A stretch of DNA of 64,000 nt, taken from the NCBI GenBank assembly GCA_012840965.1, contig DUVQ01000121.1, positions 14,907 through 78,906 of the forward strand, read 5' to 3'. This stretch comes from Oligoflexales bacterium. Lineage in GTDB: Bacteria; Myxococcota_A; UBA9042; DTJE01. Below the pieces are notes generated by a model. It was not told the origin of the DNA, did not search any database, and saw nothing but the letters and a program-made list of their open reading frames with translations. Position 1 is the stretch's first letter. Each line of letters opens with the position of its first letter. Made by a program: the position numbers and the translations under genes. Shown one piece after another: positions 41,689 to 57,605 of this stretch.

Positions 41689-41748
41689 ACGCCAATCAAT
41701 TTTCCAACTATCATTGACCTTGGCTTTTTTAAAGTTTGGGGGATTACC

Positions 41749-42357
41749 ATGCGAGTTCTAATTATCGGATTAGTGGCCCTGTTGGTTCTTTTAGTCGCGA
41801 TATTTTGGAAAAGCGTTCCTTTAGAGGGTGCGGAAGGTATCAAAAATGAACTGCAGGCGCTGGAGATGAGTGGTGCCCAAAAATGGGCGCCAGAGTCTTT
41901 TTCTGAGGCGCAGCAGGCTGTGGAAAAGGCATTGGCTGAATTCAAAAAGCAGGATGACAGGATTCCCGTTTTTCGAAGTCTTGGTCAGCTTGATGATGAC
42001 GTTAGTGCAGCTAGGGAACTTATGACGAAAACAGTTGAGGCTGTATCCAAAGCTAAAGAGGCTAGAGCTGCAGAGATATTGAAGGAAATCGCGGTTATTG
42101 AAGAGGGGCTTGGTAAGGCTTTCGAGATGCTAAAACAAGCTCCAAAAGAAGGCAGTGACAGACCTCTCCACACCATCAGAGGCGACCTTGAGTCAATAGG
42201 TCGCACAGTTGGAGATCTGCGTTCAAAAGTCGAAAGGGGTGAAGTTCCTGAAGAGACACCAGACTTTGCAGGAATGTCAGAGCAAGTCAAGAATCTGAGC
42301 GACAAAATTCCGGAAGAATTCGAGAAGATGAAAGCCTCAGCGGGACAGTGCTCGTAG
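41749..42357 (+). CDS. Membrane-anchored coiled-coil protein (hypothetical)
   Basis: N-terminal transmembrane helix, then a long helical A/E/K-rich region. Confidence 0.4.
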   Translation: MRVLIIGLVALLVLLVAIFWKSVPLEGAEGIKNELQALEMSGAQKWAPESFSEAQQAVEKALAEFKKQDDRIPVFRSLGQLDDDVSAARELMTKTVEAVSKAKEARAAEILKEIAVIEEGLGKAFEMLKQAPKEGSDRPLHTIRGDLESIGRTVGDLRSKVERGEVPEETPDFAGMSEQVKNLSDKIPEEFEKMKASAGQCS

Positions 42358-42366: not shown

Positions 42367-42450
42367 TGGTGCGAGAGGTGGGACTTGAACCCACACGGTG
42401 TTGCCACCAGAACCTAAATCTGGCGCGTCTGCCAATTCCGCCACTCTCGC
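42367..42450 (-). tRNA. tRNA-Leu (anticodon TAG), long variable arm
   Basis: Reverse complement: GCGAGAGTGGCGGAATTGGCAGACGCGCCAGATTTAGGTTCTGGTGGCAACACCGTGTGGGTTCAAGTCCCACCTCTCGCACCA. Confidence 0.75.
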
Positions 42451-42614
42451 AGACAAATGCAGCGAAAAGGTACATTAATTCAGGTAAAAGTCAATCTGAA
42501 ATTTTAAAACTGGGCATTTTTGCGTCCTTCATAATTTGACTAGACTTTGACTTAAACATGTGCGGTAATCACCAAAGTTGCTTGAATAGGTTATTGGTTC
42601 CGAAGGGGTGGCCA

Positions 42615-44660
42615 ATGAAAGTCTTGAAGTTCTTAGGCGCTTTGTCGTTAATGGTTGCCATTAGCGCAATGATTAGTTGTAGCGGCTCAGACCTGCCGCC
42701 CGACGTATCACCGGATGATTCCCCAGCCTTGGACGATGGTTCGCAGGATGATGGTTCTGATACTGCAGATCCACGTCCAGACTTGGATGACGACGCTGAC
42801 ACTGACACCGAAACTGACAGCGACGCGCCATGCGAGCAAAAGTGCGGTACTCGCGTCTGCGGCCCCGATCCGGTGTGTAAAGAGTCATGCGGGACGTGTG
42901 ATGCCCCATATGCCTGCAATGCTGACGGCCAATGTGAGTGCAAGCCACAGTGTGGTGACCGTCTCTGTGGCCCCGATCCGGTTTGCGAGAAGTCGTGCGG
43001 CGAGTGCGCACCTGGTCATAGTTGCGACTTAAATGGTCGGTGCCAGAAAGATGGCTGTGAAAAGGTATGTGGTAATCGCGTCTGTGGTCCCGATCCAGTT
43101 TGTCATCAGTCCTGCGGGTCCTGTGAGGCGCATGAAAAATGCAATGCTGATGGCCAATGCGAGTGCGTACCCCAGTGTGGTGAACGTAAGTGTGGCATTG
43201 AGCCAGTTTGTCAAACGTCTTGTGGCGTTTGTGAAGCTCCAAACAAATGCAATGAGCAAGGCCAATGTGAGTGCATCCCAGAGTGCGGCGAGCGCAAGTG
43301 CGGTGTTGACCCAGTTTGTGGAACGAAATCCTGTGGTATTTGCGGATTCTACGAAAAATGCAACGACCAATTTCTATGTGAGTGTGTGCCAGATTGCACC
43401 GGCCGCCAGTGCGGCCTTGACCCGATTTGTGGCACTGAGACCTGTGGTTACTGTGAGGCGCATGAGAAATGCAATTTGGTAGGTATATGTGAGTGCGTGC
43501 CCCAGTGTGGCGACCGTAAGTGTGGTATTGAGCCGGTTTGTCAAACGTCTTGTGGCAATTGTACCCCTCCAAACGAATGCAATGAGCAAGGCCAGTGTGA
43601 GTGCTCTCCAGACTGCCGCGGGCGCGATTGCGGCGTAGATCCAGTGTGTGGGCAATCCTGCGGCACTTGTCCTGAAAACTCCATTTGCAATCTTGATGGA
43701 CAATGTTTTGCACCATCGATTGTCTGCTCGGATGACTGGTGCTTGATTCCAGCAGGCACATTCGAGATGGGGGCTCCACAAGGCGAACCTGAATACCGTT
43801 TTGATGAGGGGCCAGTTCATTCAGTGACGATTAGCCGCTCTTTTTACATCAAACAGACTGAAGTAACTCAAGGGGAATGGCAGTCATTGATGGGAAATAA
43901 TCCATCAAATTTTCAGTCCTGTGGCAATAAGTGCCCAGTTGAGATGGTGTATTGGTACGACGCTGTCGCATACGCTAATGCCCTTTCTGAAACGCAAAGC
44001 CTTGAAAGTTGTTACACGTTAAGCAATTGCACAGGTGCACCTGGTACCGTCGGCTATAAATGTACGGTCGAGTTTAATGGTCTTGGCTGCACAGGTTATC
44101 GTTTACCTACCGAAGCTGAGTGGGAATATGCAGCGCGTGCAGGCGTTACTGGCCCAAGGTATGGCGACATTGATGCCATCGCTTGGCACAGTGGTAACAG
44201 TTTGAATAAGACTCGTGTAGTGGCTACAAGGACTGCTAACGCCTGGGGATTAAACGATGTGCTTGGCAATGTCTGGGAGTGGGTAAATGACTGGTATGGG
44301 CCAAACTACTACAGCAGCTGTTCATCGGGTTGTTCTGACCCAATAGGAATCGACGGTGGCAGTATGCGGGGGTATCGTGGCGGATCTTGGATGTCAAGCT
44401 GGAGGCAATTACGCCTGATGATGGCTCAGATACGACTCGCCCAGACATTGAGCCAATGTGTGAGCAAAACTGTGGTAATCGTGAGTGTGGTCCAGATCCG
44501 GTGTGTAAAGAGTCTTGTGGGACGTGTGATGCCCCATATTCCTGCAATGCTGATGGCCAATGTGAGTGCGAGCAAGAGTGCGGTGATCGCGTCTGTGGTC
44601 CTGACCCAGTTTGCGAAAAGTCCTGTGGCACCTGCGAAGCTGGTCATAGTTGTGACTTAA
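42615..44660 (+). CDS. Paralog 1: lipoprotein with acidic linker, 8 octa-Cys repeats (CG-R-CG-DPVC...CG-C...C-x3-GQCEC) and an FGE/SUMF1-like domain. The C-terminus is truncated or frameshifted into paralog 2.
   Basis: Signal/lipobox MISCSGS. FGE-domain motifs (WCLIPAGTFEMG, RLPTEAEWEYAARAG, RGGSW). After RGGSW the reading frame runs out-of-frame through the paralog 2 N-terminal region to a stop at 44660. Confidence 0.55.
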   Translation: MKVLKFLGALSLMVAISAMISCSGSDLPPDVSPDDSPALDDGSQDDGSDTADPRPDLDDDADTDTETDSDAPCEQKCGTRVCGPDPVCKESCGTCDAPYACNADGQCECKPQCGDRLCGPDPVCEKSCGECAPGHSCDLNGRCQKDGCEKVCGNRVCGPDPVCHQSCGSCEAHEKCNADGQCECVPQCGERKCGIEPVCQTSCGVCEAPNKCNEQGQCECIPECGERKCGVDPVCGTKSCGICGFYEKCNDQFLCECVPDCTGRQCGLDPICGTETCGYCEAHEKCNLVGICECVPQCGDRKCGIEPVCQTSCGNCTPPNECNEQGQCECSPDCRGRDCGVDPVCGQSCGTCPENSICNLDGQCFAPSIVCSDDWCLIPAGTFEMGAPQGEPEYRFDEGPVHSVTISRSFYIKQTEVTQGEWQSLMGNNPSNFQSCGNKCPVEMVYWYDAVAYANALSETQSLESCYTLSNCTGAPGTVGYKCTVEFNGLGCTGYRLPTEAEWEYAARAGVTGPRYGDIDAIAWHSGNSLNKTRVVATRTANAWGLNDVLGNVWEWVNDWYGPNYYSSCSSGCSDPIGIDGGSMRGYRGGSWMSSWRQLRLMMAQIRLAQTLSQCVSKTVVIVSVVQIRCVKSLVGRVMPHIPAMLMANVSASKSAVIASVVLTQFAKSPVAPAKLVIVVT

Positions 44661-46120
44661 ATGGCCAGTGTCAGGAAGACGGCTGTGAAAAGGCGTGCGG
44701 TGAACGCGTCTGTGGTCCCGATCCGGTCTGTGGGCAGCCTTGCGGCGACGATTGTCCAGCTCATCACAAATGCAACGACGAAGGCCAATGCGAGTGCGTG
44801 CCTCAGTGTGGCAACCGTAAGTGCGGTGATGATCCGGTCTGTGGGCAGCCTTGCGGCGACGATTGCCCAGCTCATCACAAATGCAACGATGATGGACAAT
44901 GCGAGTGCCAGCCTGAGTGTGGCGGGCGTGAGTGCGGCTATGATCCGGTCTGTGGGCAGCCTTGCGGCGACGATTGCCCAGCTCATCACGAATGCAACGA
45001 TGATGGCCAATGCGAGTGCCAGCCTGAGTGTGGCACCCGTGAGTGCGGCGATGACCCGGTTTGTGGGCAGCCTTGCGGCGATTGCCCAGCTCATCACGAA
45101 TGCAATGATGGCCAATGTCAGTGCGTACCCGACTGTTTGGGCCGTGAGTGCGGCCTAGATCCGGTCTGTGGTGTGCGGCCTTGTGGTATATGCACTGCTC
45201 CAGAGACCTGCTCATCCCAAGGAGTGTGTTGTGAACGAAACTGCACCGGTCGCCAGTGTGGTCCCGATCCTTCTTGCGGTGACTCCTGCGGTAGTTGTCC
45301 AATGTACTTGGTTTGCGAACCTAACAGTGGCCAGTGCGTTCCCCCGTATGTTGATTGCAATTCAGGATGGTGTTTTATCCCAGCAGGTACCTTTTTGATG
45401 GGTTCTCCTGAAGATGATCCAGAGCGTTATAACAATGAAGGTCCGACTTACATAGCGACGATTACCCGCGATTTTTATATGAGTCAGACGGAAGTAACTC
45501 AGGAACAGTGGGAGTCGGTGTTTCAGAACAATCCGTCTAGCACAACTGAATGTGGAGTAGATTGTCCTGTTGAGACTGTAAATTGGTTTGAAGCTGTTGC
45601 TTACGCGAATGCTCTTTCCGACAAGGAAGGTCGTGAAAAGTGTTACACGATAGAGGGTTGTTCTGGTAGTCCTGGAACGGGCCTCAAAAACTGTACAGTA
45701 ACCTATTCTAATCTGCTTGACTGCAAAGGTTATCGTTTGCCAACTGAGACAGAGTGGGAGTATGCAGCACGTGCAGGTACCTCTGAGCCTAGGTACGGCG
45801 AGGTGGACAGGATAGCTTGGCATGTAGGCAACAGTCAACGCACCTATCATCCAGTAGCTAAACTGTTACCTAATGCTTGGGGATTATATGACATGCTTGG
45901 CAACGTTTGGGAGTGGGTGCATGACTACTATGATTTCTACAATACCAGTATTTCCGGTGGGATAGACCCGTTAGGACCCTCGTGGGGCGCTGGCCGGGTT
46001 AGACGTGGCGGTGGTTGGATCTTCGATGCCAGGAACTCGCGGGCAGCTGACCGCAGCTACGACACGCCTGATACACGTAGAAGTTACATTGGCTTGCGCA
46101 TTGTAAGGACTGCGCCGTAG
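44387..46120 (+). CDS. Paralog 2: octa-Cys repeats plus FGE/SUMF1-like domain. It lacks its own signal peptide, and a TTG start is inferred.
   Basis: Its N-terminus DDGSDTTRPDIEPMCEQNCG aligns with the post-signal acidic region of paralog 1. Complete FGE-like domain ending GLRIVRTAP. Confidence 0.55.
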   Translation: MDVKLEAITPDDGSDTTRPDIEPMCEQNCGNRECGPDPVCKESCGTCDAPYSCNADGQCECEQECGDRVCGPDPVCEKSCGTCEAGHSCDLNGQCQEDGCEKACGERVCGPDPVCGQPCGDDCPAHHKCNDEGQCECVPQCGNRKCGDDPVCGQPCGDDCPAHHKCNDDGQCECQPECGGRECGYDPVCGQPCGDDCPAHHECNDDGQCECQPECGTRECGDDPVCGQPCGDCPAHHECNDGQCQCVPDCLGRECGLDPVCGVRPCGICTAPETCSSQGVCCERNCTGRQCGPDPSCGDSCGSCPMYLVCEPNSGQCVPPYVDCNSGWCFIPAGTFLMGSPEDDPERYNNEGPTYIATITRDFYMSQTEVTQEQWESVFQNNPSSTTECGVDCPVETVNWFEAVAYANALSDKEGREKCYTIEGCSGSPGTGLKNCTVTYSNLLDCKGYRLPTETEWEYAARAGTSEPRYGEVDRIAWHVGNSQRTYHPVAKLLPNAWGLYDMLGNVWEWVHDYYDFYNTSISGGIDPLGPSWGAGRVRRGGGWIFDARNSRAADRSYDTPDTRRSYIGLRIVRTAP

Positions 46121-46161
46121 TTTCTTGTGGAGAAGACCATAGTTTTGTTAAGGAGTATTAA

Positions 46162-48159
46162 ATGCGAGTCATGAAGTTTTTAGGCACGCTAGCGCTAGTT
46201 TTTGCAGTCAGCGCAATGACCAGTTGTAAGGGCTCAGACCAGCCTACCGACGTATTTCAGGAAATTCCCGCTGCTACTGACGATTCAGTGCAGGACGAAG
46301 GCGTGGCGGACGAAGGCGTGGCGGACGAAGGTGCGGCGGACGAAGGTGCGGCGGACGAAGGTGCGGCGGACGAAGGTGCGGCGGACGAAGGTTTGGCCGA
46401 CGATACTCCTGTTGACGATGGTTCAGATGTCACAGATTCAGGGGAAGACGCTGACGCAGAGGTGTCTTGCGAGCCAAAGTGCGAAGACCGAGTCTGCGGT
46501 CCTGACCCTGTTTGCAAAGAGTCCTGTGGTACCTGCGAGGCTGGTCACAGTTGTGACTCGAATGGCCAATGCCAGCAAGATGGCTGTGAAAAGGTTTGTG
46601 GTGATCGCGTCTGTGGACCCGATCCAGTTTGTGGCCAGTCTTGCGGCGGTTGTGATGCTCCATACGAATGCAATGACGCGGGCCAATGTGAGTGCGAGCC
46701 AAATTGCCATGGCCTTGATTGCGGCCCAGATCCGAAATGTGGTCAGTCCTGCGGCGGTTGTGATGCCCCATACGAATGCAATGACGCGGGCCAATGCGAG
46801 TGCGAGCCAAATTGCCATGGCCGTGAGTGCGGCAACGATCCGAAATGTGGCCTGTCCTGTGGCGGTTGTGATGCCCCATACGAATGCAATGACGCGGGCC
46901 AATGCGAGTGCAGGCCAAATTGCGAAGGCCTTGAGTGCGGCAACGACCCGAAATGTGGCCTGTCCTGTGGGACATGTACCACCCCAGCATTTTGCAATCC
47001 CCAAGGCTTGTGCGAGTGTACTCAAGAATGTGGCCTCCGCCGCTGCGGCCCTGATCCCATTTGTGGTCAGTCGTGCGGTACTTGTAGCTCTGGTTTTAGT
47101 TGTGATTTAAACGGGCTGTGTTCGCCAGATGAATGTGCAAAACAGTGTGGTACCCGCATCTGTGGTCCCGATCCAGTCTGCGGTGCATCTTGCGGTACTT
47201 GCGACTTTGGTTATAGGTGTGATGCAGATGGTCAATGTCAGCCAGATGGATGCCTGAAACAGTGTGATGGCCGTGTTTGTGGCCCTGACCCAGTATGCGG
47301 TCAAGCCTGCGGTAATTGTGTTGGAAGCCTAGTTTGCGACCTCAAAGGTAAGTGCATCCCCAACACTGCTAGGTGTGATGGTGATTGGTGCTTTATTCAA
47401 GCAGGTACTTTCCAGATGGGCTCTCCCAGTGGCGAGCTTGGCCGTTTTCGTAATGAAGGGCCAGTTCACACAGTCACCATTACACGTCCCTTTTACATAA
47501 AACAGTACGAAGTTACCCAGGGAGAGTGGAAGTCGATGTTTCACAACAATCCGTCTCGTTTCAGCACGTGTGGTGATGAGTGCCCAGTTGATCAAGTAAA
47601 CTGGTTCGAAGCCGTTGCCTACGCGAATGCTCTTTCCGAGAAGGAAGGTCTTGAAAAGTGCTACACGATAAGCGATTGTTCAGGAATCCTTGGTTCTGGA
47701 AATCCTGATTACGACCGCTATCAATGTACAGTGACTTATCCCAATCTGCTTGACTGCAAAGGTTATCGCTTGCCAACTGAGGCTGAGTGGGAGTATGCAG
47801 CACGTGCCGGTGTTCACGGGCCCAGATATGGTGAAATTTATTCCACGACGTGGTTTTCGGGAAACAGTTCCTGGCTTACTCATCCTGCAGGCGAAAAGAG
47901 TCCCAATAACTGGGGACTATATGATGTGCTTGGCAATGTTGAGGAGTGGGTGAATGACTTGTACGACGAATACTACTACTCTTCCTGTAATACCGGTTGC
48001 CAAGATCCTTTAGGGCCTGACAATAGTGATCTTCGCGTTCAACGTGGCGGCTGTTGGGCTAATAGCATCGACTCGGTGCGGTTGGCGGTTCGTGACGGTC
48101 TCTATCCTAGATTTCGTAATGATTACAGTGGGTTCCGTCTTGCAAGGACGGTTCCCTAG
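46162..48159 (+). CDS. Paralog 3: lipoprotein with (ADEG)n acidic linker, about 9 octa-Cys repeats and an FGE/SUMF1-like domain
   Basis: Lipobox AMTSCKGS, AAGGAG RBS, complete domain ending GFRLARTVP. The repeat DNA is nearly identical between units. Confidence 0.7.
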   Translation: MRVMKFLGTLALVFAVSAMTSCKGSDQPTDVFQEIPAATDDSVQDEGVADEGVADEGAADEGAADEGAADEGAADEGLADDTPVDDGSDVTDSGEDADAEVSCEPKCEDRVCGPDPVCKESCGTCEAGHSCDSNGQCQQDGCEKVCGDRVCGPDPVCGQSCGGCDAPYECNDAGQCECEPNCHGLDCGPDPKCGQSCGGCDAPYECNDAGQCECEPNCHGRECGNDPKCGLSCGGCDAPYECNDAGQCECRPNCEGLECGNDPKCGLSCGTCTTPAFCNPQGLCECTQECGLRRCGPDPICGQSCGTCSSGFSCDLNGLCSPDECAKQCGTRICGPDPVCGASCGTCDFGYRCDADGQCQPDGCLKQCDGRVCGPDPVCGQACGNCVGSLVCDLKGKCIPNTARCDGDWCFIQAGTFQMGSPSGELGRFRNEGPVHTVTITRPFYIKQYEVTQGEWKSMFHNNPSRFSTCGDECPVDQVNWFEAVAYANALSEKEGLEKCYTISDCSGILGSGNPDYDRYQCTVTYPNLLDCKGYRLPTEAEWEYAARAGVHGPRYGEIYSTTWFSGNSSWLTHPAGEKSPNNWGLYDVLGNVEEWVNDLYDEYYYSSCNTGCQDPLGPDNSDLRVQRGGCWANSIDSVRLAVRDGLYPRFRNDYSGFRLARTVP

Positions 48160-48261: not shown

Positions 48262-48648
48262 ATGAAACCGACGCCTTTTACAATTTTTTGCGGTTATTAC
48301 TTGGGATTGGATAAAGAATTCAATTACCGGTTTTTTAACCAGGACCAGTTGGCGCGTCATCTTGGGATCGACCCATCTGAGCTGCGCCACCTGATGGAAG
48401 AATACTATTTGACGCCTGAAATTGTGCGCCACGTGGACTACAATCTGGTAAAGGCTCATGCCACAGCCCAGGAAATAGTGACCTTTGGTGGTGGTGAAGA
48501 CATCAGGGTGTTTGCCAGGCGTACCTTTGAAGAATTCATCCAGGCGTTACAAAAGTACGACCCTACCAAAGACTTCGAAGGTGTGGATTATGACAACCTG
48601 TTTCCAGGTGATCCGCCTCCTGATGAAGACGATGATGTTGTTTTGTGA
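48262..48648 (+). CDS. Hypothetical protein (128 aa), acidic C-terminus, immediately upstream of the NifH-like gene
   Basis: ORF only. Confidence 0.3.
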   Translation: MKPTPFTIFCGYYLGLDKEFNYRFFNQDQLARHLGIDPSELRHLMEEYYLTPEIVRHVDYNLVKAHATAQEIVTFGGGEDIRVFARRTFEEFIQALQKYDPTKDFEGVDYDNLFPGDPPPDEDDDVVL

Positions 48649-48680
48649 CCCTGCATATTGATGGATCCAAGGAGGCAGTG

Positions 48681-49514
48681 ATGTCGCGTCCCAAAGCTAG
48701 GATGTTTGCGATGTATGGAAAGGGTGGGATTGGTAAATCCACCGTTTCATCCAACATATCGGCGGTACTGGCCAAGCAGGGTAAAAAGGTTTTGCATGTT
48801 GGCTGCGATCCCAAAGCAGATTCAACCCTTACTTTGCTGGATGGCCAACCAGTTAAGACAGTCATCCAAAAAATCGCTGGGCGCATCAGTTCCCCGGACG
48901 ACATCATCATGCCTGGGATATTGGGACTTTCTTGCATCGAGTGTGGTGGTCCTGAACCTGGGGTTGGGTGCGGAGGTCGCGGTGTTTCAAGGATGTTCGA
49001 GGTTTTGGATGACCTGGAATTGATTGAAGATGGCGAATATGACGTGGCCGTTTTTGACGTGCTGGGTGACGTCGTGTGTGGTGGCTTTGCGGCACCGCTT
49101 CGCCAGGGGCGAGCAGAACTGGTCTACATCGTTGTAAGCGAAAGCGTGATGGCGCTGTTTGCGGCAAATAACATCGCCAGGGCCATGAAACGTTTCGCTT
49201 CAAATGGAATTGCGCTTGGTGGATTAATAGTCAACCAAGCGGATGAGCACACCCCAATCGAAGGCCTACACAAGTTTGCCAAAGCTCTTGGGACCAGGAT
49301 TATTGGGGTGGTTCCGAGGGACCCTGCAATCAGAAAGGCAGAGGTGATGAAGCGCCCAGTTGTTGACATCGCGCCAGAATCAAAGGCCGCAGCTGTGTTT
49401 GCTGAACTTGCAAACGCCATAATGCAGGATTCTGTTGAAGCGCATCAGGTGCCAACGCCTTTTGACGATGCCGGTTTTGACGCCTTCATAGAACAGACGT
49501 TTGGACAGTCATGA
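48681..49514 (+). CDS. NifH/BchL-family ATPase (nitrogenase iron-protein-like); both [4Fe-4S] bridging Cys conserved
   Basis: YGKGGIGKST Walker A. CGGPEPGVGCGGRGV and DVLGDVVCGGFA match the NifH Cys97/Cys132 contexts. AAGGAGG RBS at the internal ATG. Confidence 0.8.
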   Translation: MSRPKARMFAMYGKGGIGKSTVSSNISAVLAKQGKKVLHVGCDPKADSTLTLLDGQPVKTVIQKIAGRISSPDDIIMPGILGLSCIECGGPEPGVGCGGRGVSRMFEVLDDLELIEDGEYDVAVFDVLGDVVCGGFAAPLRQGRAELVYIVVSESVMALFAANNIARAMKRFASNGIALGGLIVNQADEHTPIEGLHKFAKALGTRIIGVVPRDPAIRKAEVMKRPVVDIAPESKAAAVFAELANAIMQDSVEAHQVPTPFDDAGFDAFIEQTFGQS

Positions 49515-50581
49515 TGGACAGGCCTGGATTTGTGACTGGGGTGGCCTTGGTGGCCAACGCCGTAGCTCGGGAAATCTTCAAGGTGGATGCTTCACCTGAG
49601 GCTATTGAGGCGGTTCAGGCTGTTGTTGAACAGCATGACAGTAAAGGCTGGTGGGGCCAGATAGTTGGTGCTGACGCTTCGGGGCCTGGTTTTGACCTTT
49701 CGCGGTGTGAAAGTTCTGGAAATGATTGGGTGGACGGTTACCAAGAGGCCTTGACAGCTTTGGCCGCGGCTATTGAAGCTGTGCCCCTAGAACCAAATTC
49801 CATCGCTGTGGTTGGGATGCTCCTTGATCGGCGTGAAGCTGATCGTCGTGCTGATTATGATGAGTTGGCAGGCTACTTGGCCGCTCTTGGGTTGGATTTT
49901 TGCGGTTTTTTTCCCGCTTTTGATGTTGTGGATAGCTCCCAACTAAAGGACATCGCGCCTGCTTCAACCATTATTTCACTTCCTTACGGACGCAAAGCGG
50001 CGCACGCCATCTCAAAAAAAACTGGTGCCAAGCTCATCGAGCTGGACCTGCCAATTGGATTTGCCGGGACGAGCGATTGGATTAGCGAGGTGGCCCTTGC
50101 ATGTGGGCGTCAGCAGGCGGCTGAACAGTTGATCAAATCCAAACTTGGCTCAGCAGTACCAAAACTTGAATGGGTAGTCCCTTTTTGGTTGCTGCATCGC
50201 CGAATCTTGCTGGTTGGTGATGTCTACAAAGTTAAAGGTTGGGCCGAAGCCTTGCACGAATTTGGATGCAATGTCTTGGGCGCGATTTGCACCGGTGGAA
50301 ATCCAGCCAGCGCCCCAGATATCAACTGGATTGATAATATTCCTGATGACTTGGAAGTCGATTTAGTCATCGGAAGTCAAGTCGCCGAGGCCAAAGGCCT
50401 GCCATTTTTAGAAATGGGATTTCCAAATTTTGGTGAACATTTCATTTATTCCAGGCCAGAACTTGGTTTCGCAGGCACTCTTGCTACGGTGGAGGCGATC
50501 ATCAACAGGCTGGCCTTGACATCCGTGATGCGCCACTGGCCAGGCGGCAGGGTCAAGTTTGACCTTAGAAAAGATCCCTGA
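49511..50581 (+). CDS. Nitrogenase component-1-like (NifD/K/BchB family) protein of only 356 aa, lacking the N-terminal cluster-Cys domain
   Basis: The C-terminal DLVIGSQVAEAKGLPFLEMGFPNFGEHFIYSRPELGFAGT resembles the conserved NifD/K/E/N/BchB C-terminal Rossmann segment. ATGA overlap with the upstream stop. Confidence 0.5.
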   Translation: MMDRPGFVTGVALVANAVAREIFKVDASPEAIEAVQAVVEQHDSKGWWGQIVGADASGPGFDLSRCESSGNDWVDGYQEALTALAAAIEAVPLEPNSIAVVGMLLDRREADRRADYDELAGYLAALGLDFCGFFPAFDVVDSSQLKDIAPASTIISLPYGRKAAHAISKKTGAKLIELDLPIGFAGTSDWISEVALACGRQQAAEQLIKSKLGSAVPKLEWVVPFWLLHRRILLVGDVYKVKGWAEALHEFGCNVLGAICTGGNPASAPDINWIDNIPDDLEVDLVIGSQVAEAKGLPFLEMGFPNFGEHFIYSRPELGFAGTLATVEAIINRLALTSVMRHWPGGRVKFDLRKDP

Positions 50582-51326
50582 CTGAATAAAGTCCTGGTTT
50601 TTTAAGGACTAATTTTTCGCCCAAAGTTAGAGCTCCTTGTGCGAAGGCCATTCTCGATGAGGCCCTGTGAGTAATCTCGATTCGATCATGTGGCCCCAGG
50701 AAATAGATGGTGTGATCCCCGACTACTTCACCCCCTCGGACTGATAACAAGCCAAGTTCGTTGTCCTTTCTGGCTCCGGCGCCCCTGTTTGTGACTACCT
50801 GCAGGCCATTGCCAAGGGTTGAAGCCAAGGACAAGGCCGTCCCAGATGGGGCATCCTTTTTGTGGCGATGGTGTATCTCAACTATTTCCACGTCATACGT
50901 TGGACCCAGGATCTCCTTAGCCTTGGTGGCCAATTCATGCATGGCAAGGACGCCAATGCTGGTGTTCGCAGCCCACAAGACTGGGATTTTTTGGCTGGCG
51001 ATTTTGATCCTTTCATGGTCTTGCTCGGACAAACCTGTAGTCCCGCTTACCACTGGAATATTCAGGTCCGCCATGGTTTCGATGAAGCTAACTGACGCTT
51101 CGGGGGCGCTGAAATCAATGGCTAGATTTCCATTTAAGGACTTCCAGGAACTTGCATCTGAAGAACTCAAAATAGTTGTGGGGCCAAGTGGGGTGTTTTG
51201 GATAGTGCCAACATCTGGATGATTTGGTGCCTCTATAGCAGCTGCCAACTGGAATTTTCCTGCGGCGGCCTCCATAATCATTTGCCCCATCCGCCCCATT
51301 GCACCGTTTATTATTAATTTCAACAC
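50565..51326 (-). CDS. dapB: 4-hydroxy-tetrahydrodipicolinate reductase
   Basis: MLKLIINGAMGRMGQMI...; DapB N- and C-terminal domains. Confidence 0.8.
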   Translation of the reverse strand: MLKLIINGAMGRMGQMIMEAAAGKFQLAAAIEAPNHPDVGTIQNTPLGPTTILSSSDASSWKSLNGNLAIDFSAPEASVSFIETMADLNIPVVSGTTGLSEQDHERIKIASQKIPVLWAANTSIGVLAMHELATKAKEILGPTYDVEIVEIHHRHKKDAPSGTALSLASTLGNGLQVVTNRGAGARKDNELGLLSVRGGEVVGDHTIYFLGPHDRIEITHRASSRMAFAQGALTLGEKLVLKKPGLYSVRDLF

Positions 51327-51353: not shown

Positions 51354-52382
51354 TTACTGGGCCCTAGCTTTAAATATTGCTTCAGCTTCAGCTACTGTCC
51401 TTTCGACTAGCTCTGAAACTGTTGGTAAATCCTGGATCAACCCAGCGATTTGCCCAATGGGCAGTGCCCCCTTGTCCAAGTTGCCATCAGCACACGCTAA
51501 TTCAAACCCTTTAAAGGCATTAGCCATGAAGGCCATCTTTTCGATGTTTTTTGGGCCTGATGCTGCCACACCCAAAGCTAGTTTCAAGTATGGAACATCC
51601 ATCATTTCAGCTATTTGTCGCGAATTTAGGAAGGCCCTTGGCAGATCTAGGCCTCGTTTGACCGCCTTTTGCGCACCTGGGGCCTTCAAAATCCTGCAGG
51701 GCTGACCATCGAACCTTGATGAATAGATCGTGTCATAGGGGCTAGCCTTTAATGCGGCATCTTTGGCGGCTTGGGCAACTGGGCTTTCTTTGGTCAGCAT
51801 CAGCCTAGTTCCCATCGCCACACCTTGGGCACCAAGGGCTAAAGCCGCAGCAAGTCCTCGACCATCGGCAATTCCACCAGCAGCGACCACCGGGATGGAA
51901 ACAGCATCGACCAGAGTTGGCACCAAAACCATGGTGGTGACATCGCCACCGTGAGCGGCGGCCTCGTGGCCTGTCACCAGCAAGGCATGGGCACCCCAGC
52001 TTTCGGCAGCCTTAGCATGTTTTGCATTGACAACGGTGGCAATAACCCTGCCGCCATACGATTTTGCAGCATCAACAATCCAATCACCCTTTCCCATGGA
52101 CACGTTTATTATCGGGACTTGTTCATCCAGCAGGACCTGTGCGTTTTCGCGAGCCCCCGGGAAATAGAGGGTGGCATTTGCACCAAAGGGTTTGTCGGTC
52201 AGTTGCCGAATTTTGCGAACCGCCTCTCTGGTTTGCTTGGCCCCATAAACACCAGTAGCCAAGATTCCAAGGCCACCAGCGTTGCTTACTGCAGCCACCA
52301 TTTCTGGGGTGCTGACCCAGCTCATTCCAGACAGCAGAATTGGATGTTTGATACCGAATAGTTCAGTGATTTCTGTTTTCAC
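51354..52382 (-). CDS. Nitronate monooxygenase / FabK-like FMN enoyl reductase family protein
   Basis: NMO family patterns GIKHPILLSGMSWVS, AAGGIADGRGLAAALALGAQGVAMGTR. Confidence 0.7.
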   Translation of the reverse strand: MKTEITELFGIKHPILLSGMSWVSTPEMVAAVSNAGGLGILATGVYGAKQTREAVRKIRQLTDKPFGANATLYFPGARENAQVLLDEQVPIINVSMGKGDWIVDAAKSYGGRVIATVVNAKHAKAAESWGAHALLVTGHEAAAHGGDVTTMVLVPTLVDAVSIPVVAAGGIADGRGLAAALALGAQGVAMGTRLMLTKESPVAQAAKDAALKASPYDTIYSSRFDGQPCRILKAPGAQKAVKRGLDLPRAFLNSRQIAEMMDVPYLKLALGVAASGPKNIEKMAFMANAFKGFELACADGNLDKGALPIGQIAGLIQDLPTVSELVERTVAEAEAIFKARAQ

Positions 52383-52450: not shown

Positions 52451-52500
52451 CGGGGCGGGGTGGGGGAGGCGGGGCCGGGAGCGGGGGCAGGGGCGGGGGC
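52451..52500. repeat. G-rich tract (GGGGCGGGGTGGGGGAGGCGGGGCCGGGAGCGGGGGCAGGGGCGGGGGC)
   Basis: Direct reading. Intergenic, 3' of the MopE-like gene. Confidence 0.75.
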
Positions 52501-54512
52501 TATTGGCAGGGCTGTACTTGGCTTCTTCTTACCGGCCTACATTCGTTGCCAACCTTGCTACAGGCGATAACGACAGTGCCAGTTTCCCCGCATTCTGGAA
52601 GGGGCTCTAGCCAGCCTTCAAGGTGAAGACATACAATTGTCCCCTCCAAACCGGTTTCTTTCCTGCAGTAGCCAGGTGAATACAACTCCTGCATCGTTTC
52701 TTTGCCGTCACAGTCGTAGTCGAAGTTGTTGCAGTTGTTTTTTGTGGCAAAGAAATCGGTGACGCCCCTATGTACCCTTGAGTCAAGGTCACAGCAATCA
52801 GTTGAGCTGGCCACGTACCCCGCTGGAGGTGTGTCTCTGCATTCACAAGCACTTGGCTCATTAAGTGCTCCGTATCCATCGCCGTCTCTATCTCGGTAGT
52901 AGGTTTTACATTTGAGCGAGCCCGGTTCGTCCGTCTCTCCGTCACAGTCGAGGTCTAGGCCAGAGCACATTTCAGGTCTTGCCTCATATTTCTGGGCGCA
53001 GTTGAGTGCACCGTCTATACAGGTCCACGTGCCCCATTGGCAAATACCAGGCTTACCAGTCTCACAATCTCTGCCATCTTGTGAAAAACTCTCGTCCGTT
53101 TCCCCATCGCAGTCGTTATCTAGGCCATCGCATTCTTCTGTCTCGACATCTTTTATCGGCCAACACCAAAGTTTACCACCTGAACAGTACTGCCTGCCGT
53201 ATTTACAAACACCAAGCATACCTGTGTCACAGTTTTGGCCATCATCAGAGCTATCTTCGTCTGTCTCCCCATCACAGTCGTTGTCTAGGCCATCACAGAC
53301 TTCATGGGACGATGGTGTTTTCGGTTCGCAAGCCAGTGATCCGTTTCTACACACCCGCTTGCCGTCTTTGCAAACACCATCCAAGCGTGTGTCACAATCT
53401 TGGCCATCTTCTGGAAAACTTTCGTCCGTCTCCCCATCACAGTCGTTGTCTAGGCCATCACAGATTTCATGGGACGATGGCGTTTTCTGTTCGCAAGCCA
53501 GTGCTCCGTTTCTACAGACCCACTTGCCGTCTTTGCAAACACCCAGTTTACCGGTGTCACAATTCTGGCCATCTTCAGGAACATCTTCATCAGTCTCGCC
53601 ATCACAGTCGTCGTCCAAGCCATTGCACTTTTCCACAGATGCCTGCGTTGTCTGGGTACAGACGAATGCCCCCCTAATACAGACCATGGTAGCCGCGCTA
53701 CAAACACCCAACTTGTCAGGAACTAGAACACAATCTTGACCACCCCCAGGGTTGTCTTCGTCAATTCGACCATCGCAGTTGTTGTCTTTACCATCGCAGA
53801 TTTCTTCAGTCGGTTGCTTAGTTTGGTTGCAAACAAGAGTTCCATCTTTACAAGTAGTTGTGCCAATTGCGCAGACCCCCTGCAATTCTGTGTCACAATC
53901 CTGACCACTCTCAGGATTGTCTTCGTCGGTCTGGCCATCGCAGTCATTGTCTTTGCCGTCACAAATTTCATCAGTTGGGTCGCCAGGAATGCATTCATTT
54001 AGCACACCATCGGTACATTTCGCGACTTCCCTGAAACATTCTCCGATGCCACAAGTTATGGTCTCACCATTGTCGGCCGGGGTGTTGGTACAGCCTGATT
54101 CGGGCTTGCAACTATCAGCCGTGCAAGGGTTTTTATCGTCACAATCAATAGCCGGGCCACTTATGCACTCACCATCCAAGCAAGTGTCCGGGCCGGTGCA
54201 CCGATCTCCATCAGAGCATGGCGCATCATTTTCCAGCAAGACTTCCGTGCATTCCTTATCAAGGCATTTGAACACGTGGCACTGCTTTGGCTGTTTGTCG
54301 CAGTCTTGATCAAGCTCACACGCGACAGGCTCGGTACTGTCATCATCTTCAAACGCGCCATCATCTCCGTGCTGGCCGCGGTCGTGTTTTGCATCTGTGG
54401 CCGATTTTGAGTCCAGGTCCAGGGCATCCGAATTATTCAAGTCACCACCCCCCTTACATCCCAAGGCCAAAGTGGCGACTATCAAAGGCAACAATGCTAA
54501 GCGCGGCTTCAT
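52500..54512 (-). CDS. Secreted lipoprotein with 7 or more MopE-type putative metal-binding repeats (CDGxDNDCDGxTDE) and Cys-rich C-terminal modules
   Basis: Lipobox LALGCKGG after the internal ATG (GAGGAA RBS). Repeated CDGKDNDCDGQTDED / CDGLDNDCDGETDES. Confidence 0.7.
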   Translation of the reverse strand: MKPRLALLPLIVATLALGCKGGGDLNNSDALDLDSKSATDAKHDRGQHGDDGAFEDDDSTEPVACELDQDCDKQPKQCHVFKCLDKECTEVLLENDAPCSDGDRCTGPDTCLDGECISGPAIDCDDKNPCTADSCKPESGCTNTPADNGETITCGIGECFREVAKCTDGVLNECIPGDPTDEICDGKDNDCDGQTDEDNPESGQDCDTELQGVCAIGTTTCKDGTLVCNQTKQPTEEICDGKDNNCDGRIDEDNPGGGQDCVLVPDKLGVCSAATMVCIRGAFVCTQTTQASVEKCNGLDDDCDGETDEDVPEDGQNCDTGKLGVCKDGKWVCRNGALACEQKTPSSHEICDGLDNDCDGETDESFPEDGQDCDTRLDGVCKDGKRVCRNGSLACEPKTPSSHEVCDGLDNDCDGETDEDSSDDGQNCDTGMLGVCKYGRQYCSGGKLWCWPIKDVETEECDGLDNDCDGETDESFSQDGRDCETGKPGICQWGTWTCIDGALNCAQKYEARPEMCSGLDLDCDGETDEPGSLKCKTYYRDRDGDGYGALNEPSACECRDTPPAGYVASSTDCCDLDSRVHRGVTDFFATKNNCNNFDYDCDGKETMQELYSPGYCRKETGLEGTIVCLHLEGWLEPLPECGETGTVVIACSKVGNECRPVRRSQVQPCQ

Positions 54513-54602
54513 CGCGGTTCCTCGGAACATGATGCTGGCGATTTTATAATCCATCCTTCGAGGATGCAATAAATCGGGGTGGTTAATAGCGAAAATTTTG
54601 TG

Positions 54603-54836: not shown

Positions 54837-55871
54837 ATGATTCGAGTCATTCAATGGGGACTTGGCGCCATGGGTAGTGGCATGGCCAAATTGATTTTGG
54901 AAAAGGATGGCTTGCAGCTGGTTGGCGCCATCGACACCAGACCTGAATATGCCGGCAAAGACGTCGGCAGTGTCTTGGGGCTTGGACGTGAACTCGGGGT
55001 CGAGGTCCAAGCCACCCCAGACGGCCTGCTTGATCCCGATGTGGCCGATATAGTCGTCATTGCAACCACTTCTTGGACTGCCCAGCAAATGCCCCAGCTA
55101 CGCCAGATTCTAGGCAGTGGCCTCAATTGCATCTCAATCGCCGAAGAAATGGCCTCACCTGAAGCTCAAAGTCCAGAATTGGCCACCGAACTTGACCAAC
55201 TGGCAAAAGCAAACAACGTTTCAGTTTTGGGAACTGGCGTCAACCCTGGTTTCGTCTTGGATCTACTTGTGGTCACTCTCTCCGGAGTTTGCCACAAGGT
55301 TGATCGCATCGAGGCCAGCCGCGTCAACGATTTAAGCCCTTATGGGCCAACAGTTATGGCGACCCAAGGAGTCGGAATCACCCCTGAGGCTTTTAAAGAA
55401 GGCGTCGCCAACGGCACCATCGTCGGCCACGTCGGCTTCCCCGAAAGCATCAGGATGATCTCGGACGCCCTTGGCCTAGGTGTTGATCGCGTTGTTGAAA
55501 CTCGTGAACCCATCGTGTCCAAGGTCCTGCGTGAAGCCGCCCACGTGACGGTTCAGCCCGGGATGGTCGCTGGATGCAAGCATATCGCGGTCGGATACGC
55601 AGGTGATAAGGCGGTTGTCAAACTGGTTCACCCCCAGCAGGTCCATCCGCATCTGGAAGGGCAAAGCACTGGTGACTACATCAACATCTATGGAACGCCA
55701 GATATTGTGATGTCCACCGGACCTGAAATTGCCGGTGGAATTGCAACCCAGGGGCTTGCAGTAAACATGGTTCCACATGTAGTCCAAGCAAGCCCAGGTT
55801 TAAAGAATATGTTGGACCTGCCGGCCCCAGCGGCGTTGATGGGGGCAAGCGCGTACAGGCGCAGAGTTTGA
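54837..55871 (+). CDS. ord: 2,4-diaminopentanoate dehydrogenase (DapB-like NAD(P) fold)
   Basis: 344 aa. N-terminal Rossmann VIQWGLGAMGSGMAK. Size and context match the Clostridium sticklandii ord-ortAB-oraSE cluster. Confidence 0.7.
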   Translation: MIRVIQWGLGAMGSGMAKLILEKDGLQLVGAIDTRPEYAGKDVGSVLGLGRELGVEVQATPDGLLDPDVADIVVIATTSWTAQQMPQLRQILGSGLNCISIAEEMASPEAQSPELATELDQLAKANNVSVLGTGVNPGFVLDLLVVTLSGVCHKVDRIEASRVNDLSPYGPTVMATQGVGITPEAFKEGVANGTIVGHVGFPESIRMISDALGLGVDRVVETREPIVSKVLREAAHVTVQPGMVAGCKHIAVGYAGDKAVVKLVHPQQVHPHLEGQSTGDYINIYGTPDIVMSTGPEIAGGIATQGLAVNMVPHVVQASPGLKNMLDLPAPAALMGASAYRRRV

Positions 55872-55885
55872 ACAAGGAGGGCGAC

Positions 55886-56197
55886 GTGGCTGTAGTCAAT
55901 AAAGGAACTTGGGTTGAGATTGAATCGGTGGTTTTAACGCCTGAAGAAAGGGCGCCTGGGATTCCGCCAGAAACTGCAAAGTGCCCCTTGGTTATGAAGG
56001 TTTCCGGGTTTTTGGCCAATGATGCCTCGCTGGGTGACGAAGTTCGCGTTTACACCATGATCGGGCGCCAAGTTAAGGGACGTTTGGCCACGATTAATCC
56101 TGGATATGACCACAGCTTTGGGTCCACGGTGTCAGAACTGCTGCAAATTGGACGGACACCTGATGTGCCTGCACAACAAGGAGGCCAAAATGACTGA
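55886..56197 (+). CDS. ortA: 2-amino-4-ketopentanoate thiolase alpha subunit
   Basis: About 103 aa. VAVVNKGTWVEIE aligns with the OrtA N-terminus (MKAKKGDWVQI). GTG start after an AAGGAGG RBS. Confidence 0.7.
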   Translation: MAVVNKGTWVEIESVVLTPEERAPGIPPETAKCPLVMKVSGFLANDASLGDEVRVYTMIGRQVKGRLATINPGYDHSFGSTVSELLQIGRTPDVPAQQGGQND

Positions 56198-57605
56198 TCA
56201 CAGCTACCAAGCGGTTTTAAAACGAAAAAACCAGATCATGAAGGCCAGCCTTGGAATCGACTTTGATTCCTATGAAACCAGCCCAATCGCCTTTGATTAT
56301 GAAAAACTGATGCTTGACACTGGCTATTCAATTGAAGAAATCGCCGCAATTCAGGCCAGATCAAAGGTTGGAAACACCCCCCTTTATGAATTGACTAGGC
56401 TGACTGAACTTGTGCGCCAAACTACCGCCCCTGGTAAAGGTGCAAGGATCCTGCTTAAAGATGAGGCCGCAAATGCATCTGGGTCTTTCAAGGCTCGCAG
56501 GGCAAGTATCAGCATTCACGAAGCCAAAAGACTTGGGTTTAAAGGCGTTATCGCCGCAACTTCTGGAAACTATGGAGCGGCTGTAGCCAGCCAAGCGGCT
56601 ATGCATGGTCTAAAGTGCATCGTAATTCAGGAAGTGTTTGACAGTAAAGGGGTTTGTCAGCCTGAAATCATTGAAAAATCCAGGGCTTGTGAGGCATATG
56701 GCGCGGAAGTTCAAAGGCTTTCTGTCGGGCCAGAACTGTTTTATGTCCTTTTAAAGACCTTGGAAGAAACAGGCTTTTTTAACGCCAGCCTTTACACTCC
56801 GTTTGGGATCAGGGGGGTCGAAACTCTGGGCTATGAAATCGCCCAGCAGGTTCGGGCCAGGTACGGCAAGGCGCCTGAAGCCGTAGTTGTTACACACGCA
56901 GGTGGAGGCAATCTGACTGGTACAGCAAGGGGGCTGTTGGCGGCCGGGTGCAAGGACACCAAGGTAGTCGCCTGCTCAGTCGATCTAAAAGGCCTGCACA
57001 TGGCATCGGACATCGACTTCAACAAAAAGAGCTTCACCACCGGCCACACTGGCTTTGGGGTTCCTTTCGCCACATGGCCAGATCGGGTTGACGTCCCAAG
57101 AAACGCCGCCAGAAGCCTGCGCTATATGGATGAATACCAGCTGGTCAGCCAAGGTGAGGTGTTTTATGTCACCGAACTGCTGGCAAAGCTAGAGGGGCTT
57201 GAGCGCGGACCCGCCGGGAACACCAGTCTGACCGCGGCAATTACCTTGGCAAGGCAGATGGACCAGGATGAGATAGTTGTAGTTCAGGAAACCGAGTACA
57301 CGGGCGCTGGAAAGCACCACAACAGCCAGTTGTCCTTTGCCAAGCAAAACGGAATCGAGATCCTGGTTGGTGACCCGTCCCAGAACATCCCAGGCAAAAA
57401 CATCATCCTGCCCAGAAGTCTGGATGATGTCAGAGGGCGACCTCAGGACATGGATCGCCTGAGGCTGTCTTATCTGAAAAACGCCGACAAGGTTCACAGT
57501 TCGAACAATTGGAACGCAGGTGATATCGAGTTTCTGGCATCTGACCTGAAAACAAGTTCCAGTTGGGTAAGGGACGCAATAAGAAACGGCTTTAAGGGGA
57601 CATAG
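56190..57605 (+). CDS. ortB: 2-amino-4-ketopentanoate thiolase beta subunit (PLP-dependent, Trp-synthase-beta fold)
   Basis: 471 aa. PLP-lysine region ANASGSFKARRA. AAGGAGG RBS. Confidence 0.75.
   Translation: MTDHSYQAVLKRKNQIMKASLGIDFDSYETSPIAFDYEKLMLDTGYSIEEIAAIQARSKVGNTPLYELTRLTELVRQTTAPGKGARILLKDEAANASGSFKARRASISIHEAKRLGFKGVIAATSGNYGAAVASQAAMHGLKCIVIQEVFDSKGVCQPEIIEKSRACEAYGAEVQRLSVGPELFYVLLKTLEETGFFNASLYTPFGIRGVETLGYEIAQQVRARYGKAPEAVVVTHAGGGNLTGTARGLLAAGCKDTKVVACSVDLKGLHMASDIDFNKKSFTTGHTGFGVPFATWPDRVDVPRNAARSLRYMDEYQLVSQGEVFYVTELLAKLEGLERGPAGNTSLTAAITLARQMDQDEIVVVQETEYTGAGKHHNSQLSFAKQNGIEILVGDPSQNIPGKNIILPRSLDDVRGRPQDMDRLRLSYLKNADKVHSSNNWNAGDIEFLASDLKTSSSWVRDAIRNGFKGT

Follow-up and report, generated by a model that had tools for sequence, protein, structure and literature searches.

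A probable offshoot of the Group VI nitrogenase paralogues in Myxococcota: a NifH-family ATPase with a truncated beta-type component-1 homologue

In a 64,000-nucleotide stretch of an Oligoflexales bacterium genome (contig DUVQ01000121.1; hereafter the window), we examined three genes at 48262-50581 that encode a small acidic protein, a NifH-family ATPase (H) and a 356 aa homologue of nitrogenase component 1 (the partner, or short beta). Very probably these genes constitute a module that is inherited vertically within a single lineage of anaerobic Myxococcota and that is a reduced offshoot of the Group VI nitrogenase paralogues, in which the alpha subunit has been lost and the beta subunit lacks its cysteines and most of domain I. 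The initial annotation of this locus had described an orphan pair, which was borne out with respect to nif, bch and cfb genes, and none of nifB, nifE, nifN and nifD was found among the annotated window ORFs (open reading frames). Its assignment of the pair to Group IV was not supported, as both proteins have their closest relatives among the Group VI paralogues found in Elusimicrobia and Myxococcales.

Organization of the locus

The three ORFs of the initial annotation were all present in the window ORF list and run in one direction (48262-48648, 128 aa; 48645/48681-49514; 49511-50581, 356 aa). The module has the following features.

48262..48648, plus strand: ORF of the small acidic protein, 128 aa, a conserved companion of the H/short-beta pair
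48669..48675, plus strand: Shine-Dalgarno-like AAGGAGG, read from the sequence, 5 nt before the H ATG
48681..49514, plus strand: NifH-family ATPase (H), 277 aa, assigned by Pfam Fer4_NifH and motifs
49511..50581, plus strand: truncated beta-type nitrogenase component-1 homologue, 356 aa, assigned by Pfam Oxidored_nitro and by AlphaFold2 with Foldseek

For H, the ATG at 48681 (277 aa) is the most likely start, because AAGGAGG lies 5 nt upstream and the homologues are of equal length; the alternative GTG start (48645, 289 aa) has no Shine-Dalgarno-like site. The stop codon of H and the start codon of the short-beta gene overlap as ATGA (49511-49514), in agreement with the translational coupling that had been proposed for the pair. 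A wrong start or a frameshift was considered as the cause of the short N-terminus of the partner and was rejected, the same architecture being found in at least eight lineages. Nor is the shortening an annotation artefact, because the H gene, read in a different frame, fills the upstream DNA, and many assemblies show this architecture independently. When the window and five related loci were scanned with Rfam, tRNAs were the only RNAs near the module, with no riboswitch or other regulatory RNA, and a promoter/terminator scan gave nothing above the shuffled expectation.

The NifH-like protein

H was matched by Pfam Fer4_NifH (PF00142) with 287 bits (E 1.9e-85, cut-off 25) over profile positions 2-267 of 271. 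The motifs YGKGGIGKST (Walker A), GCDPKADST, GVGCGGRG, CGGPEPGVGCGGRG and DVLGDVVCGGF were present and invariant in 11 clade members, and the protein carries switch I/II, the Cys97- and Cys132-equivalent [4Fe-4S] ligands and the Arg100-equivalent (CGGRG). Judged by the full-domain score, the nucleotide motifs and both predicted cluster cysteines, H is a member of the Fe-protein superfamily. The hallmarks read from it at the outset (Walker A and both cluster cysteines) are therefore present and clade-invariant, and at 287 bits on Fer4_NifH it does not group with ParA/MinD.

None of the models for characterised Fe proteins claimed H. It scored 289.7 bits on NCBIfam nifH (the TIGR01287 equivalog), below the cut-off of 394.35, and 282.5 bits on CfbC (NF033200), below that of 402. 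Membership of the pair in the DPOR/COR enzymes was likewise not indicated, with 209 bits on BchL (cut-off 345), 178 bits on BchX (cut-off 331), 33 bits on BchN (cut-off 324) and no second subunit. Against Protein Data Bank (PDB) sequences, H matched NifH at about 230 bits and BchL/ChlL at 160-165 bits. Its identity was 42-46% to annotated NifH, 37-39% to BchL and 48-54% to the H proteins of the long-form (Group VI-type) loci described below.

The truncated beta-type partner

The partner was matched by Pfam Oxidored_nitro (PF00148) with 106 bits (E 2e-30, cut-off 28.6), so that both profile searches proposed in the initial annotation, Fer4_NifH and Oxidored_nitro, gave scores above threshold (287 and 106 bits). 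The match covers only profile positions 114-398 of 399, which correspond to partner residues 66-334. An AlphaFold2 model of the partner reached a pLDDT of 84.6 and a pTM of 0.88, with low confidence only at residues 1-70 and the C-terminus, and domain I was vestigial in it (pLDDT 48-78). Searched with Foldseek, this model retrieved NifK, AnfK, VnfK, NifN and BchB chains (probability 1.0, query-normalised TM 0.67-0.75), beta chains ranking first; the structural similarity to component 1 on which the earlier interpretation depended is thus found. A PDB profile search gave NifK at 3e-12 and BchB at 6e-12, vs BchN at 4e-6 and NifE at 1e-3. Because the Foldseek ranking and the profile search agree, we regard the partner as beta-type (NifK/BchB/NifN-like). 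From the profile match and the predicted structure, it is a component-1 oxidoreductase homologue (PF00148) with domains II and III intact and domain I reduced.

About 70 residues of domain I remain, namely a GV.LVANAV strand-helix and an 'HD' helix, after which the sequence passes directly into the invariant 'DW.DGY' helix, both in the window protein and in the other 16 short forms (308-411 aa). Alignment with long forms revealed that the DGPDC cysteine and a block of ~55-60 residues (TS.P..S.TG) are absent in all 17 short forms. No cysteine is invariant among the 17, C253 of 'ELGC' being replaced by Ala, Met or Leu in five of them. The N-terminal domain is vestigial rather than absent, because the strand-helix and the 'HD' helix are kept while the cysteine segments and the block are gone; the earlier claim that the partner lacks the N-terminal cluster-cysteine domain was therefore correct for the cluster cysteines, lost in 17/17 short forms, and incorrect for the ~70 domain-I residues that persist.

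The remainder of the partner is well marked by conserved positions. Sixteen residues are invariant across 56 family members (D43, W73, G76, G102, D106, R107, E109, D111, L157, P158, A163, P181, G183, G303, H310 and G322), and 63 are invariant across four short forms. The partner retains the family-wide motifs HD, DW.DGY, DR.E.D, SLPYGR, LP.G, LEWVVP, GD, GFPS..H and P.LGF.G. LEWVVP, the most conserved motif of the family, aligns with BchB segment 267-278 (PWWSASVDSTYL), which we take to include Asp274, the proposed proton donor at the Pchlide (protochlorophyllide) site of DPOR.

Long-form relatives and probable loss of the alpha subunit

Word-indexed and exhaustive searches for the partner family yielded 12 proteins in the first search and 57 in the profile search. 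A single-sequence phmmer search against 1.84 billion representatives returned only 426 proteins at E<=1e-3, and the matches whose genomic context was examined were beta-type subunits of H/alpha/beta systems. Scanning GTDB genomes with the sequence of the partner (356 aa) alone gave no match, and the broad alignment A2 was too divergent for a pattern search; a pattern search with the short-form alignment A4 worked and supplied related loci. We compared 21 loci from named GTDB genomes, 23 from metagenomes and the contexts of individual proteins, mapping the genes with phmmer.

Most partner relatives are longer (413-473 aa) and have the near-invariant N-terminal sequence 'VDGPDC..K..F..G.HD..STL', in which the DGPDC motif is followed by the block of ~55-60 residues that ends in 'TS.P..S.TG.DY.R'. 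All long-form loci with enough upstream sequence have an alpha-like component-1 homologue (about 600-730 aa) directly upstream. The gene order is usually H-alpha-beta, and the hosts are Elusimicrobia and Myxococcota. Two cysteines of the alpha-like protein are conserved in 16/16 sequences ('ECHC' and 'TNTCLP..IG'), and its best curated models are nifE, nitrogenase alpha and BchB/BchN. By analogy, the two alpha cysteines and the beta DGPDC cysteine would resemble the asymmetric 3Cys(+Asp) NB-cluster site of DPOR.

At all short-form Myxococcota loci, H is followed by the short gene. This holds for the window (and L034-L038), L002/L003/L008, L004/L005, L006/L007/L011/L044/L045, L009, L012, L039, L040 and L041/L042. 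In the window and at least eight related loci, phmmer detected no gene for an alpha-like protein in the 8-10 kb to the left and right of the module. On these comparisons, the partner is very probably the beta member of an ancestral alpha/beta pair whose alpha gene was lost, not a CfbD-like primordial homodimer subunit. That ancestral system would have comprised H, an alpha-like subunit of about 600 aa with two invariant cysteines and a beta-like subunit of about 420-470 aa with the DGPDC cysteine, with radical-SAM and tetrapyrrole genes usually on its flanks.

Several long-form loci have a tetrapyrrole context: hemA/hemC lie beside L001, a TP_methylase gene and two radical-SAM genes occur in L033, and a B12-radical-SAM gene occurs in L026. 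In L033 (49-3755; Elusimicrobiota), an 803 aa protein fuses a NifH-like domain to an alpha-like Oxidored_nitro domain, an unusual Fe-protein-component-1 fusion; its gene is followed by that of the long beta-like P0139, and the TP_methylase and radical-SAM genes lie a few kb downstream. In L060 (8001-10247), P0179 (748 aa) joins a full-length beta-like module with an 'EAPDC' cysteine to a domain-I-less beta-like module; H and an alpha-like gene (734 aa) precede it, and radical-SAM genes lie on its flanks. This fusion indicates that domain-I-less beta modules arose more than once in the family. L026 (5203-10918; Elusimicrobiota) contains a 308 aa cysteine-less short beta-like gene with 'LPGRRTEF' in place of 'DGPDC', which adjoins an Oxidored_nitro gene of full length (439 aa) on the other strand and a gene for a B12-binding radical-SAM protein (706 aa); the 12.9 kb of this locus contained no NifH-like gene.

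Relationship to Group VI and to characterised systems

Group VI nitrogenase paralogues were defined in Elusimicrobia, in which they co-occur with radical-SAM genes, and Group VI nifH was also reported from genomes of Myxococcales (14) and Gracilibacteria (2) (Méheust et al. 2020, doi 10.1101/765248). Supplementary Dataset 2 of that study lists 'Deltaproteobacteria bacterium isolate B64_G9', which is our locus L015, and its metabolic table records the Group VI paralogue in Elusimicrobia RBG_16_66_12, our locus L023 (Méheust et al. 2020, doi 10.1101/765248). The nearest relatives of the partner include beta-type subunits in both of these genomes.

A hidden Markov model (HMM) anchored on Group VI was built from 21 H proteins of Group VI-listed genomes and related long-form loci, the short clade being excluded. 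The window H scored 384 bits on this model, the training members 347-452 bits, NifH references 291-313 bits and BchL 223 bits. In a neighbour-joining (NJ) tree, the short-clade H proteins were monophyletic with 100% support, and they joined Group VI-type H, not NifH, with a bootstrap of 44% in a tree with few outgroups and no CfbC or BchX references. Because of the missed equivalog cut-offs, the higher identity of H to long-form H, the Group VI HMM score and the NJ placement, we file the pair with Group VI, and predict it to be a derived offshoot of that group (a member or a sister) rather than a Group IV or CfbCD system.

The likeness to Group VI nitrogenase-like (NFL) systems extends beyond the nearest relatives and the Myxococcota host: both ligand cysteines of H (Cys97 and Cys132) and its nucleotide motifs are conserved, the component-1 homologue is highly divergent and without P-cluster cysteines, and neither NifB nor NifEN is present. 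Other Group VI traits, the D + K pair (found in about two thirds of Group VI genomes) and a conserved radical-SAM gene, are missing at the short-form loci. The window system differs in that it has no alpha subunit and a beta subunit ~70-110 residues shorter with no cysteine ligand. Its operon contains no radical-SAM/tetrapyrrole genes, and instead has a dedicated small gene for a helix-turn-helix (HTH)-like protein within housekeeping synteny (tRNA-Leu ... dapB-metK). The H proteins of its clade are also separate from Group VI H, with 100% support and 48-54% identity. About one third of Group VI genomes have NflH and NflD only, with highly variable cysteines (2026 NFL review, PMC13474568). A form without cluster cysteines and alpha, truncated in domain I and with this synteny is not described in that review or in other literature found.

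Other characterised systems are less close. DPOR (BchL/BchN/BchB, Group V) shares the fold and profile match of the partner with BchB (E 6e-12; TM about 0.7), and the two alpha cysteines plus one beta cysteine of the long-form relatives recall its NB-cluster site; however, H is only 37-39% identical to BchL, and there is no BchN counterpart, NB-cluster ligand set or photosynthesis gene. Compared with NifH and its partners NifEN and NifDK, H is 42-46% identical to NifH with the Arg100-equivalent kept, and the partner structurally resembles NifK and NifN, whereas the pair has no P-cluster, L-cluster or FeMo-co ligands. A place among the nitrogenases (Nif/Vnf/Anf) is contradicted by the single 356 aa subunit without conserved cysteines, vs 3+3 P-cluster cysteines and Cys275/His442. 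The sulfur-compound reductases MarBHDK and IsrBHDK (Groups IV-C and IV-F) have D/K subunits with P-cluster-type cysteines, next to which a NifB-like radical-SAM gene is encoded (PMC13474568). As members of the superfamily they demonstrate that substrates other than tetrapyrroles are open to NFL enzymes, but neither their P-cluster-type cysteines nor the radical-SAM gene is present here.

Synteny, distribution and selection

The neighbourhood of the module was compared among relatives that share 62-82% identity with the window in H and 34-52% in the partner, with tRNAs identified by ARAGORN and Rfam (window, L002, L004, L006 and L009). The gene order of the relatives was tRNA-Leu(TAG, minus) – small protein – H – short beta – dapB (convergent) – metK – yebC – ruvCAB. 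The conserved neighbours that the initial annotation suggested looking for in related genomes therefore exist, as the order small protein, H, short beta and dapB is kept. Its borders in the window are as follows.

42367..42450, minus strand: tRNA-Leu(TAG), ancestral left border of the module, found by ARAGORN and Rfam
50565..51326, minus strand: dapB, convergent, conserved right border and a synteny marker, not a functional part, assigned by Pfam DapB_N and DapB_C

The dapB 3' end overlaps the 3' end of the short-beta (D-like) gene by 17 nt, and the dapB arrangement is the same at all short-form loci. In the relatives, tRNA-Leu is directly upstream of the small ORF; in the window, three cysteine-rich FGE-sulfatase genes (42558-48159) sit between them. 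The H and partner genes are overlapping or adjacent in every lineage.

The small protein is a conserved gene product, with homologues beside the pair that are 83% (L002), 70% (L004) and 46-49% (L006 and L009) identical. Its gene is on the same strand as the pair in the window, L002 and L004, and on the opposite, divergent strand in L006, L009, L039, L042 and L044. The invariant residues include C10, H33, H57 and H66. Sub-threshold matches to HTH_19, MerR_1 and HTH_8 (E 0.017-0.1) fall in residues 25-55, a possible helix-turn-helix; a profile search found no PDB sequence match, and the single-sequence AlphaFold2 model was unusable (pLDDT 50.7). The small protein is probably an HTH-type regulator of the operon. 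The initial annotation had suggested it as a possible third component; its association with the pair is borne out by its conservation next to it, but it resembles an HTH-type regulator more than a catalytic subunit.

To describe selection on the module, we made codon-based comparisons of six genome pairs and calculated omega where dS was estimable. Omega was 0.22-0.37 for the partner, 0.18-0.23 for dapB and 0.08-0.18 for H, the slowest in the module, and these values are rough because synonymous sites are near saturation. The partner dN was 0.30-0.60; relative to the dapB value of each genome pair, it was higher by a factor of 1.1-1.6. Between near-identical strains, H had 6 synonymous and 0 non-synonymous changes and the partner 3 and 3, too few to inform. 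Across at least eight lineages, in which identity falls as low as 34%, the partner reading frame was intact. Because its rate of evolution is close to that of dapB, the short-beta gene is, as far as these comparisons indicate, neither a pseudogene nor a relic, and it appears to be functional and under purifying selection.

The exact window proteins occur on 46-118 public contigs, where they are annotated only as 'hypothetical', 'AAA family ATPase/NifH' or 'nitrogenase component 1' of Myxococcota metagenome-assembled genomes. A partial H protein from the anaerobic-digester bin ADurb.Bin058 is identical over the aligned region (73% of the query). The hosts of the module are abundant, and some come from anaerobic digester and activated sludge.

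Proposed mechanism and alternatives

To our knowledge, the Fe protein always passes electrons to a component-1 iron-sulfur cluster in the characterised members of the superfamily (Nif/Vnf/Anf, NifEN, DPOR, COR, CfbCD, Mar and Isr). Here an intact Fe protein is kept throughout a lineage beside an alpha-less partner without a known cluster-binding mode. The explanation could be a new use of the ATP-driven electron pump, a non-redox job for a NifH-type protein or a distant partner, and any of these outcomes would inform the evolution of nitrogenase-like enzymes and Group VI chemistry. Since the module is small (three genes, about 2.3 kb), its expression should be easy, which makes Group VI function more tractable.

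We tentatively favour the explanation that a reduced Group VI module acts as a direct-transfer reductase, which as a whole is plausible though somewhat short of probable. Its mechanistic part, in which the ATP-driven H delivers electrons directly to a tetrapyrrole-like substrate on a cluster-less partner, is possible but doubtful. The H dimer would bind and hydrolyse ATP, and its bridging [4Fe-4S] cluster would donate electrons at low potential, the role that it has in nitrogenase, DPOR and CfbCD. The dimer would dock in an ATP-dependent manner on the short beta protein, probably a homodimer, with the substrate held in the cleft between domains II and III. The electron would then pass straight from the H cluster to the redox-active substrate, a direct transfer proposed because the partner can bind no relay cluster in the usual way. 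The substrate would most plausibly be a tetrapyrrole or corrinoid-type molecule, to judge from the genomic context of the long-form family; the host, an anaerobe, also has B12-dependent genes for ornithine fermentation in the window. The small protein would probably regulate the operon. If true, such a cluster-less reductase would break the rule that component 1 needs a relay cluster. That the module is a minimal reductase of a new mechanistic class, without a component-1 relay cluster and reductively evolved from a three-component Group VI enzyme, is unlikely on present evidence.

Several points weigh against the direct-transfer reductase and its Group VI origin, including the 44% bootstrap and the rough omega values given above. 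We know of no nitrogenase-like enzyme that works without a component-1 acceptor cluster, and of no precedent for direct transfer. Domain I normally forms much of the docking surface for the Fe protein; it is largely gone in the partner. The tetrapyrrole link is borrowed from the long-form relatives, and no tetrapyrrole or radical-SAM gene is conserved beside the module at the short-form loci. The partner may ligate a cluster through residues other than cysteine (Asp, His or Ser). An alpha-like partner or other Oxidored_nitro genes could also lie elsewhere in the ~3.2 Mb genome, beyond the 64 kb of the window and the 8-10 kb flanks.

This last point bears on a somewhat unlikely alternative, in which the real partner of H is a full-size alpha/beta pair encoded elsewhere and the short beta protein, as a cluster-less paralogue, serves as a carrier of substrate or cofactor, an assembly chaperone or a docking modulator. 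NifEN, NifX and NafY are assembly helpers of nitrogenase, and cysteine-less or domain-I-poor beta modules do co-occur with full-size subunits in L026 and in the P0179 fusion. However, H is coupled specifically to the short gene at every short-form Myxococcota locus, with no alpha-like gene within 8-10 kb, and the H proteins of the short clade group by themselves at 100% support and co-diverge with the short partner.

It is distinctly less likely that the pair is a non-catalytic ATP/redox switch or sensor that responds to the redox or energy state of the cell or to a bound ligand and signals via the small HTH-like protein, or that it inserts a cofactor without net reduction. The small protein, with its recurrent sub-threshold HTH matches, is the only other conserved member of the module, its gene is divergent in several lineages, as is typical of regulators, and the partner is without the usual redox centre. 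But the NifH family offers no precedent for a pure signalling role, the substrate-cleft motifs common to the catalytic long forms are kept, and the HTH assignment is weak (E 0.017-0.1), the structure model of the small protein being unusable.

A Ni-tetrapyrrole reductive cyclase of the CfbC/CfbD type, from an F430-like pathway in a bacterium, is highly improbable. Both systems consist of an Fe protein and one component-1 homologue of ~360 aa, in two genes, with ATP-dependent reduction on a homomeric partner (in our case as proposed here), and the H score on the CfbC model (282.5) nearly equals that on nifH. The initial annotation had pointed to the size match with CfbC/CfbD; the sizes are indeed similar, but the resemblance goes no further, as H lies below the 402 cut-off and the partner matches no CfbD-named model at E<=1. 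The CfbD homodimer of M. barkeri binds an inter-subunit [4Fe-4S] cluster through Cys39 and Cys94 (PMC13474568), whereas none of the 17 short forms has a cysteine at the corresponding N-terminal positions. CfbCD (Group IV-B) also has other phylogenetic neighbours: the nearest partner relatives are beta subunits of heteromeric Group VI systems, and the two-gene state would here be secondary, through alpha loss, not ancestral. Among the window ORFs that were annotated, none resembled cfbA, cfbB or cfbE. One lineage (L004, 6261-7881; also L005) has two ABC ATPase genes between the small gene and H, with the nickel import ATPases NikD and NikE as best models (209 and 174 bits, below the cut-offs), which would fit a nickel substrate. 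As evidence for nickel, this single sub-cut-off occurrence was rejected and is at most a weak hint at the handling of a metal or metallo-cofactor. A TonB-dependent receptor gene and a B12-binding radical-SAM gene lie further upstream in L004.

That the short gene is a decaying, functionless remnant of a Group VI beta subunit is equally hard to credit: its alpha partner is gone, as are its cysteines and the greater part of domain I, its rate is 2-3 times that of H and it shows 3 non-synonymous and 3 synonymous changes in close strains vs 0 and 6 in H (very small numbers), but its frame is intact in at least eight lineages, 16 residues are invariant in 56 family members and 63 in four short forms, its dN is only 1.1-1.6 times that of dapB with omega at 0.22-0.37, and its synteny and coupling to H are conserved.

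Surroundings of the module

The three genes between tRNA-Leu and the small gene (42558-48159, plus strand) are tandem paralogues that encode secreted-looking proteins with 'CG.R.CGPDP.CG.SCG.C' repeats and a C-terminal FGE-sulfatase (SUMF1-like) domain. ORF 1 (42558-44660), the end of which looks out of frame, overlaps ORF 2 (44387-46120), and the region is divided differently in the same-species assemblies L034-L036, which suggests recombination or assembly instability of the repeats.

Upstream, at 38130-42357 (plus strand), lie genes for an 863 aa protein without a Pfam or NCBIfam match, a radical-SAM protein of 310 aa that is best matched by HxsC4/HxsC-type maturases, and a third product, of 202 aa, without a match. 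They are a possible maturation cassette ~7 kb upstream of the module, which is kept in the same-species strains L034-L036 and was not seen beside the module in other lineages. The radical-SAM gene of the window (40756-41688) was considered as part of the module and rejected; its product shares 29% identity with the radical-SAM protein of a Group VI locus and reaches 134 bits on HxsC4, against a cut-off of 500, and it is not counted because it is not conserved beside the module in relatives. L002 and L004 have B12-radical-SAM genes of differing type a few kb away. Further upstream in the window (34978-36039, minus strand), a gene of the methylthioribose-1-phosphate isomerase family (IF-2B/MtnA) lies beside tRNA-Gln and tRNA-Glu, after a ribosomal-protein/SecY/rpoA cluster. 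No link between this gene and the module was found; metK follows dapB in the loci of the relatives.

On the other side of the module, a nitronate monooxygenase (NMO) gene (51354-52382, minus strand) adjoins a gene at 52500-54569 (minus strand), whose product, 689 aa long and rich in cysteine, has repeats of the MopE-type metal-binding and Dicty_CTDC kinds. Dicty_CTDC, MopE-like and NMO genes also occur near the Group VI-type cluster in L060, which may be a coincidence. At 54837-63724 (plus strand) there is a complete-looking cluster for oxidative ornithine (Stickland-type) fermentation, with genes for 2,4-diaminopentanoate dehydrogenase, an OrtA/OrtB-like thiolase (PALP), a B12-dependent D-ornithine 4,5-aminomutase, a MutL-like reactivase and two racemases, indicating an anaerobic, B12-using lifestyle of the host.

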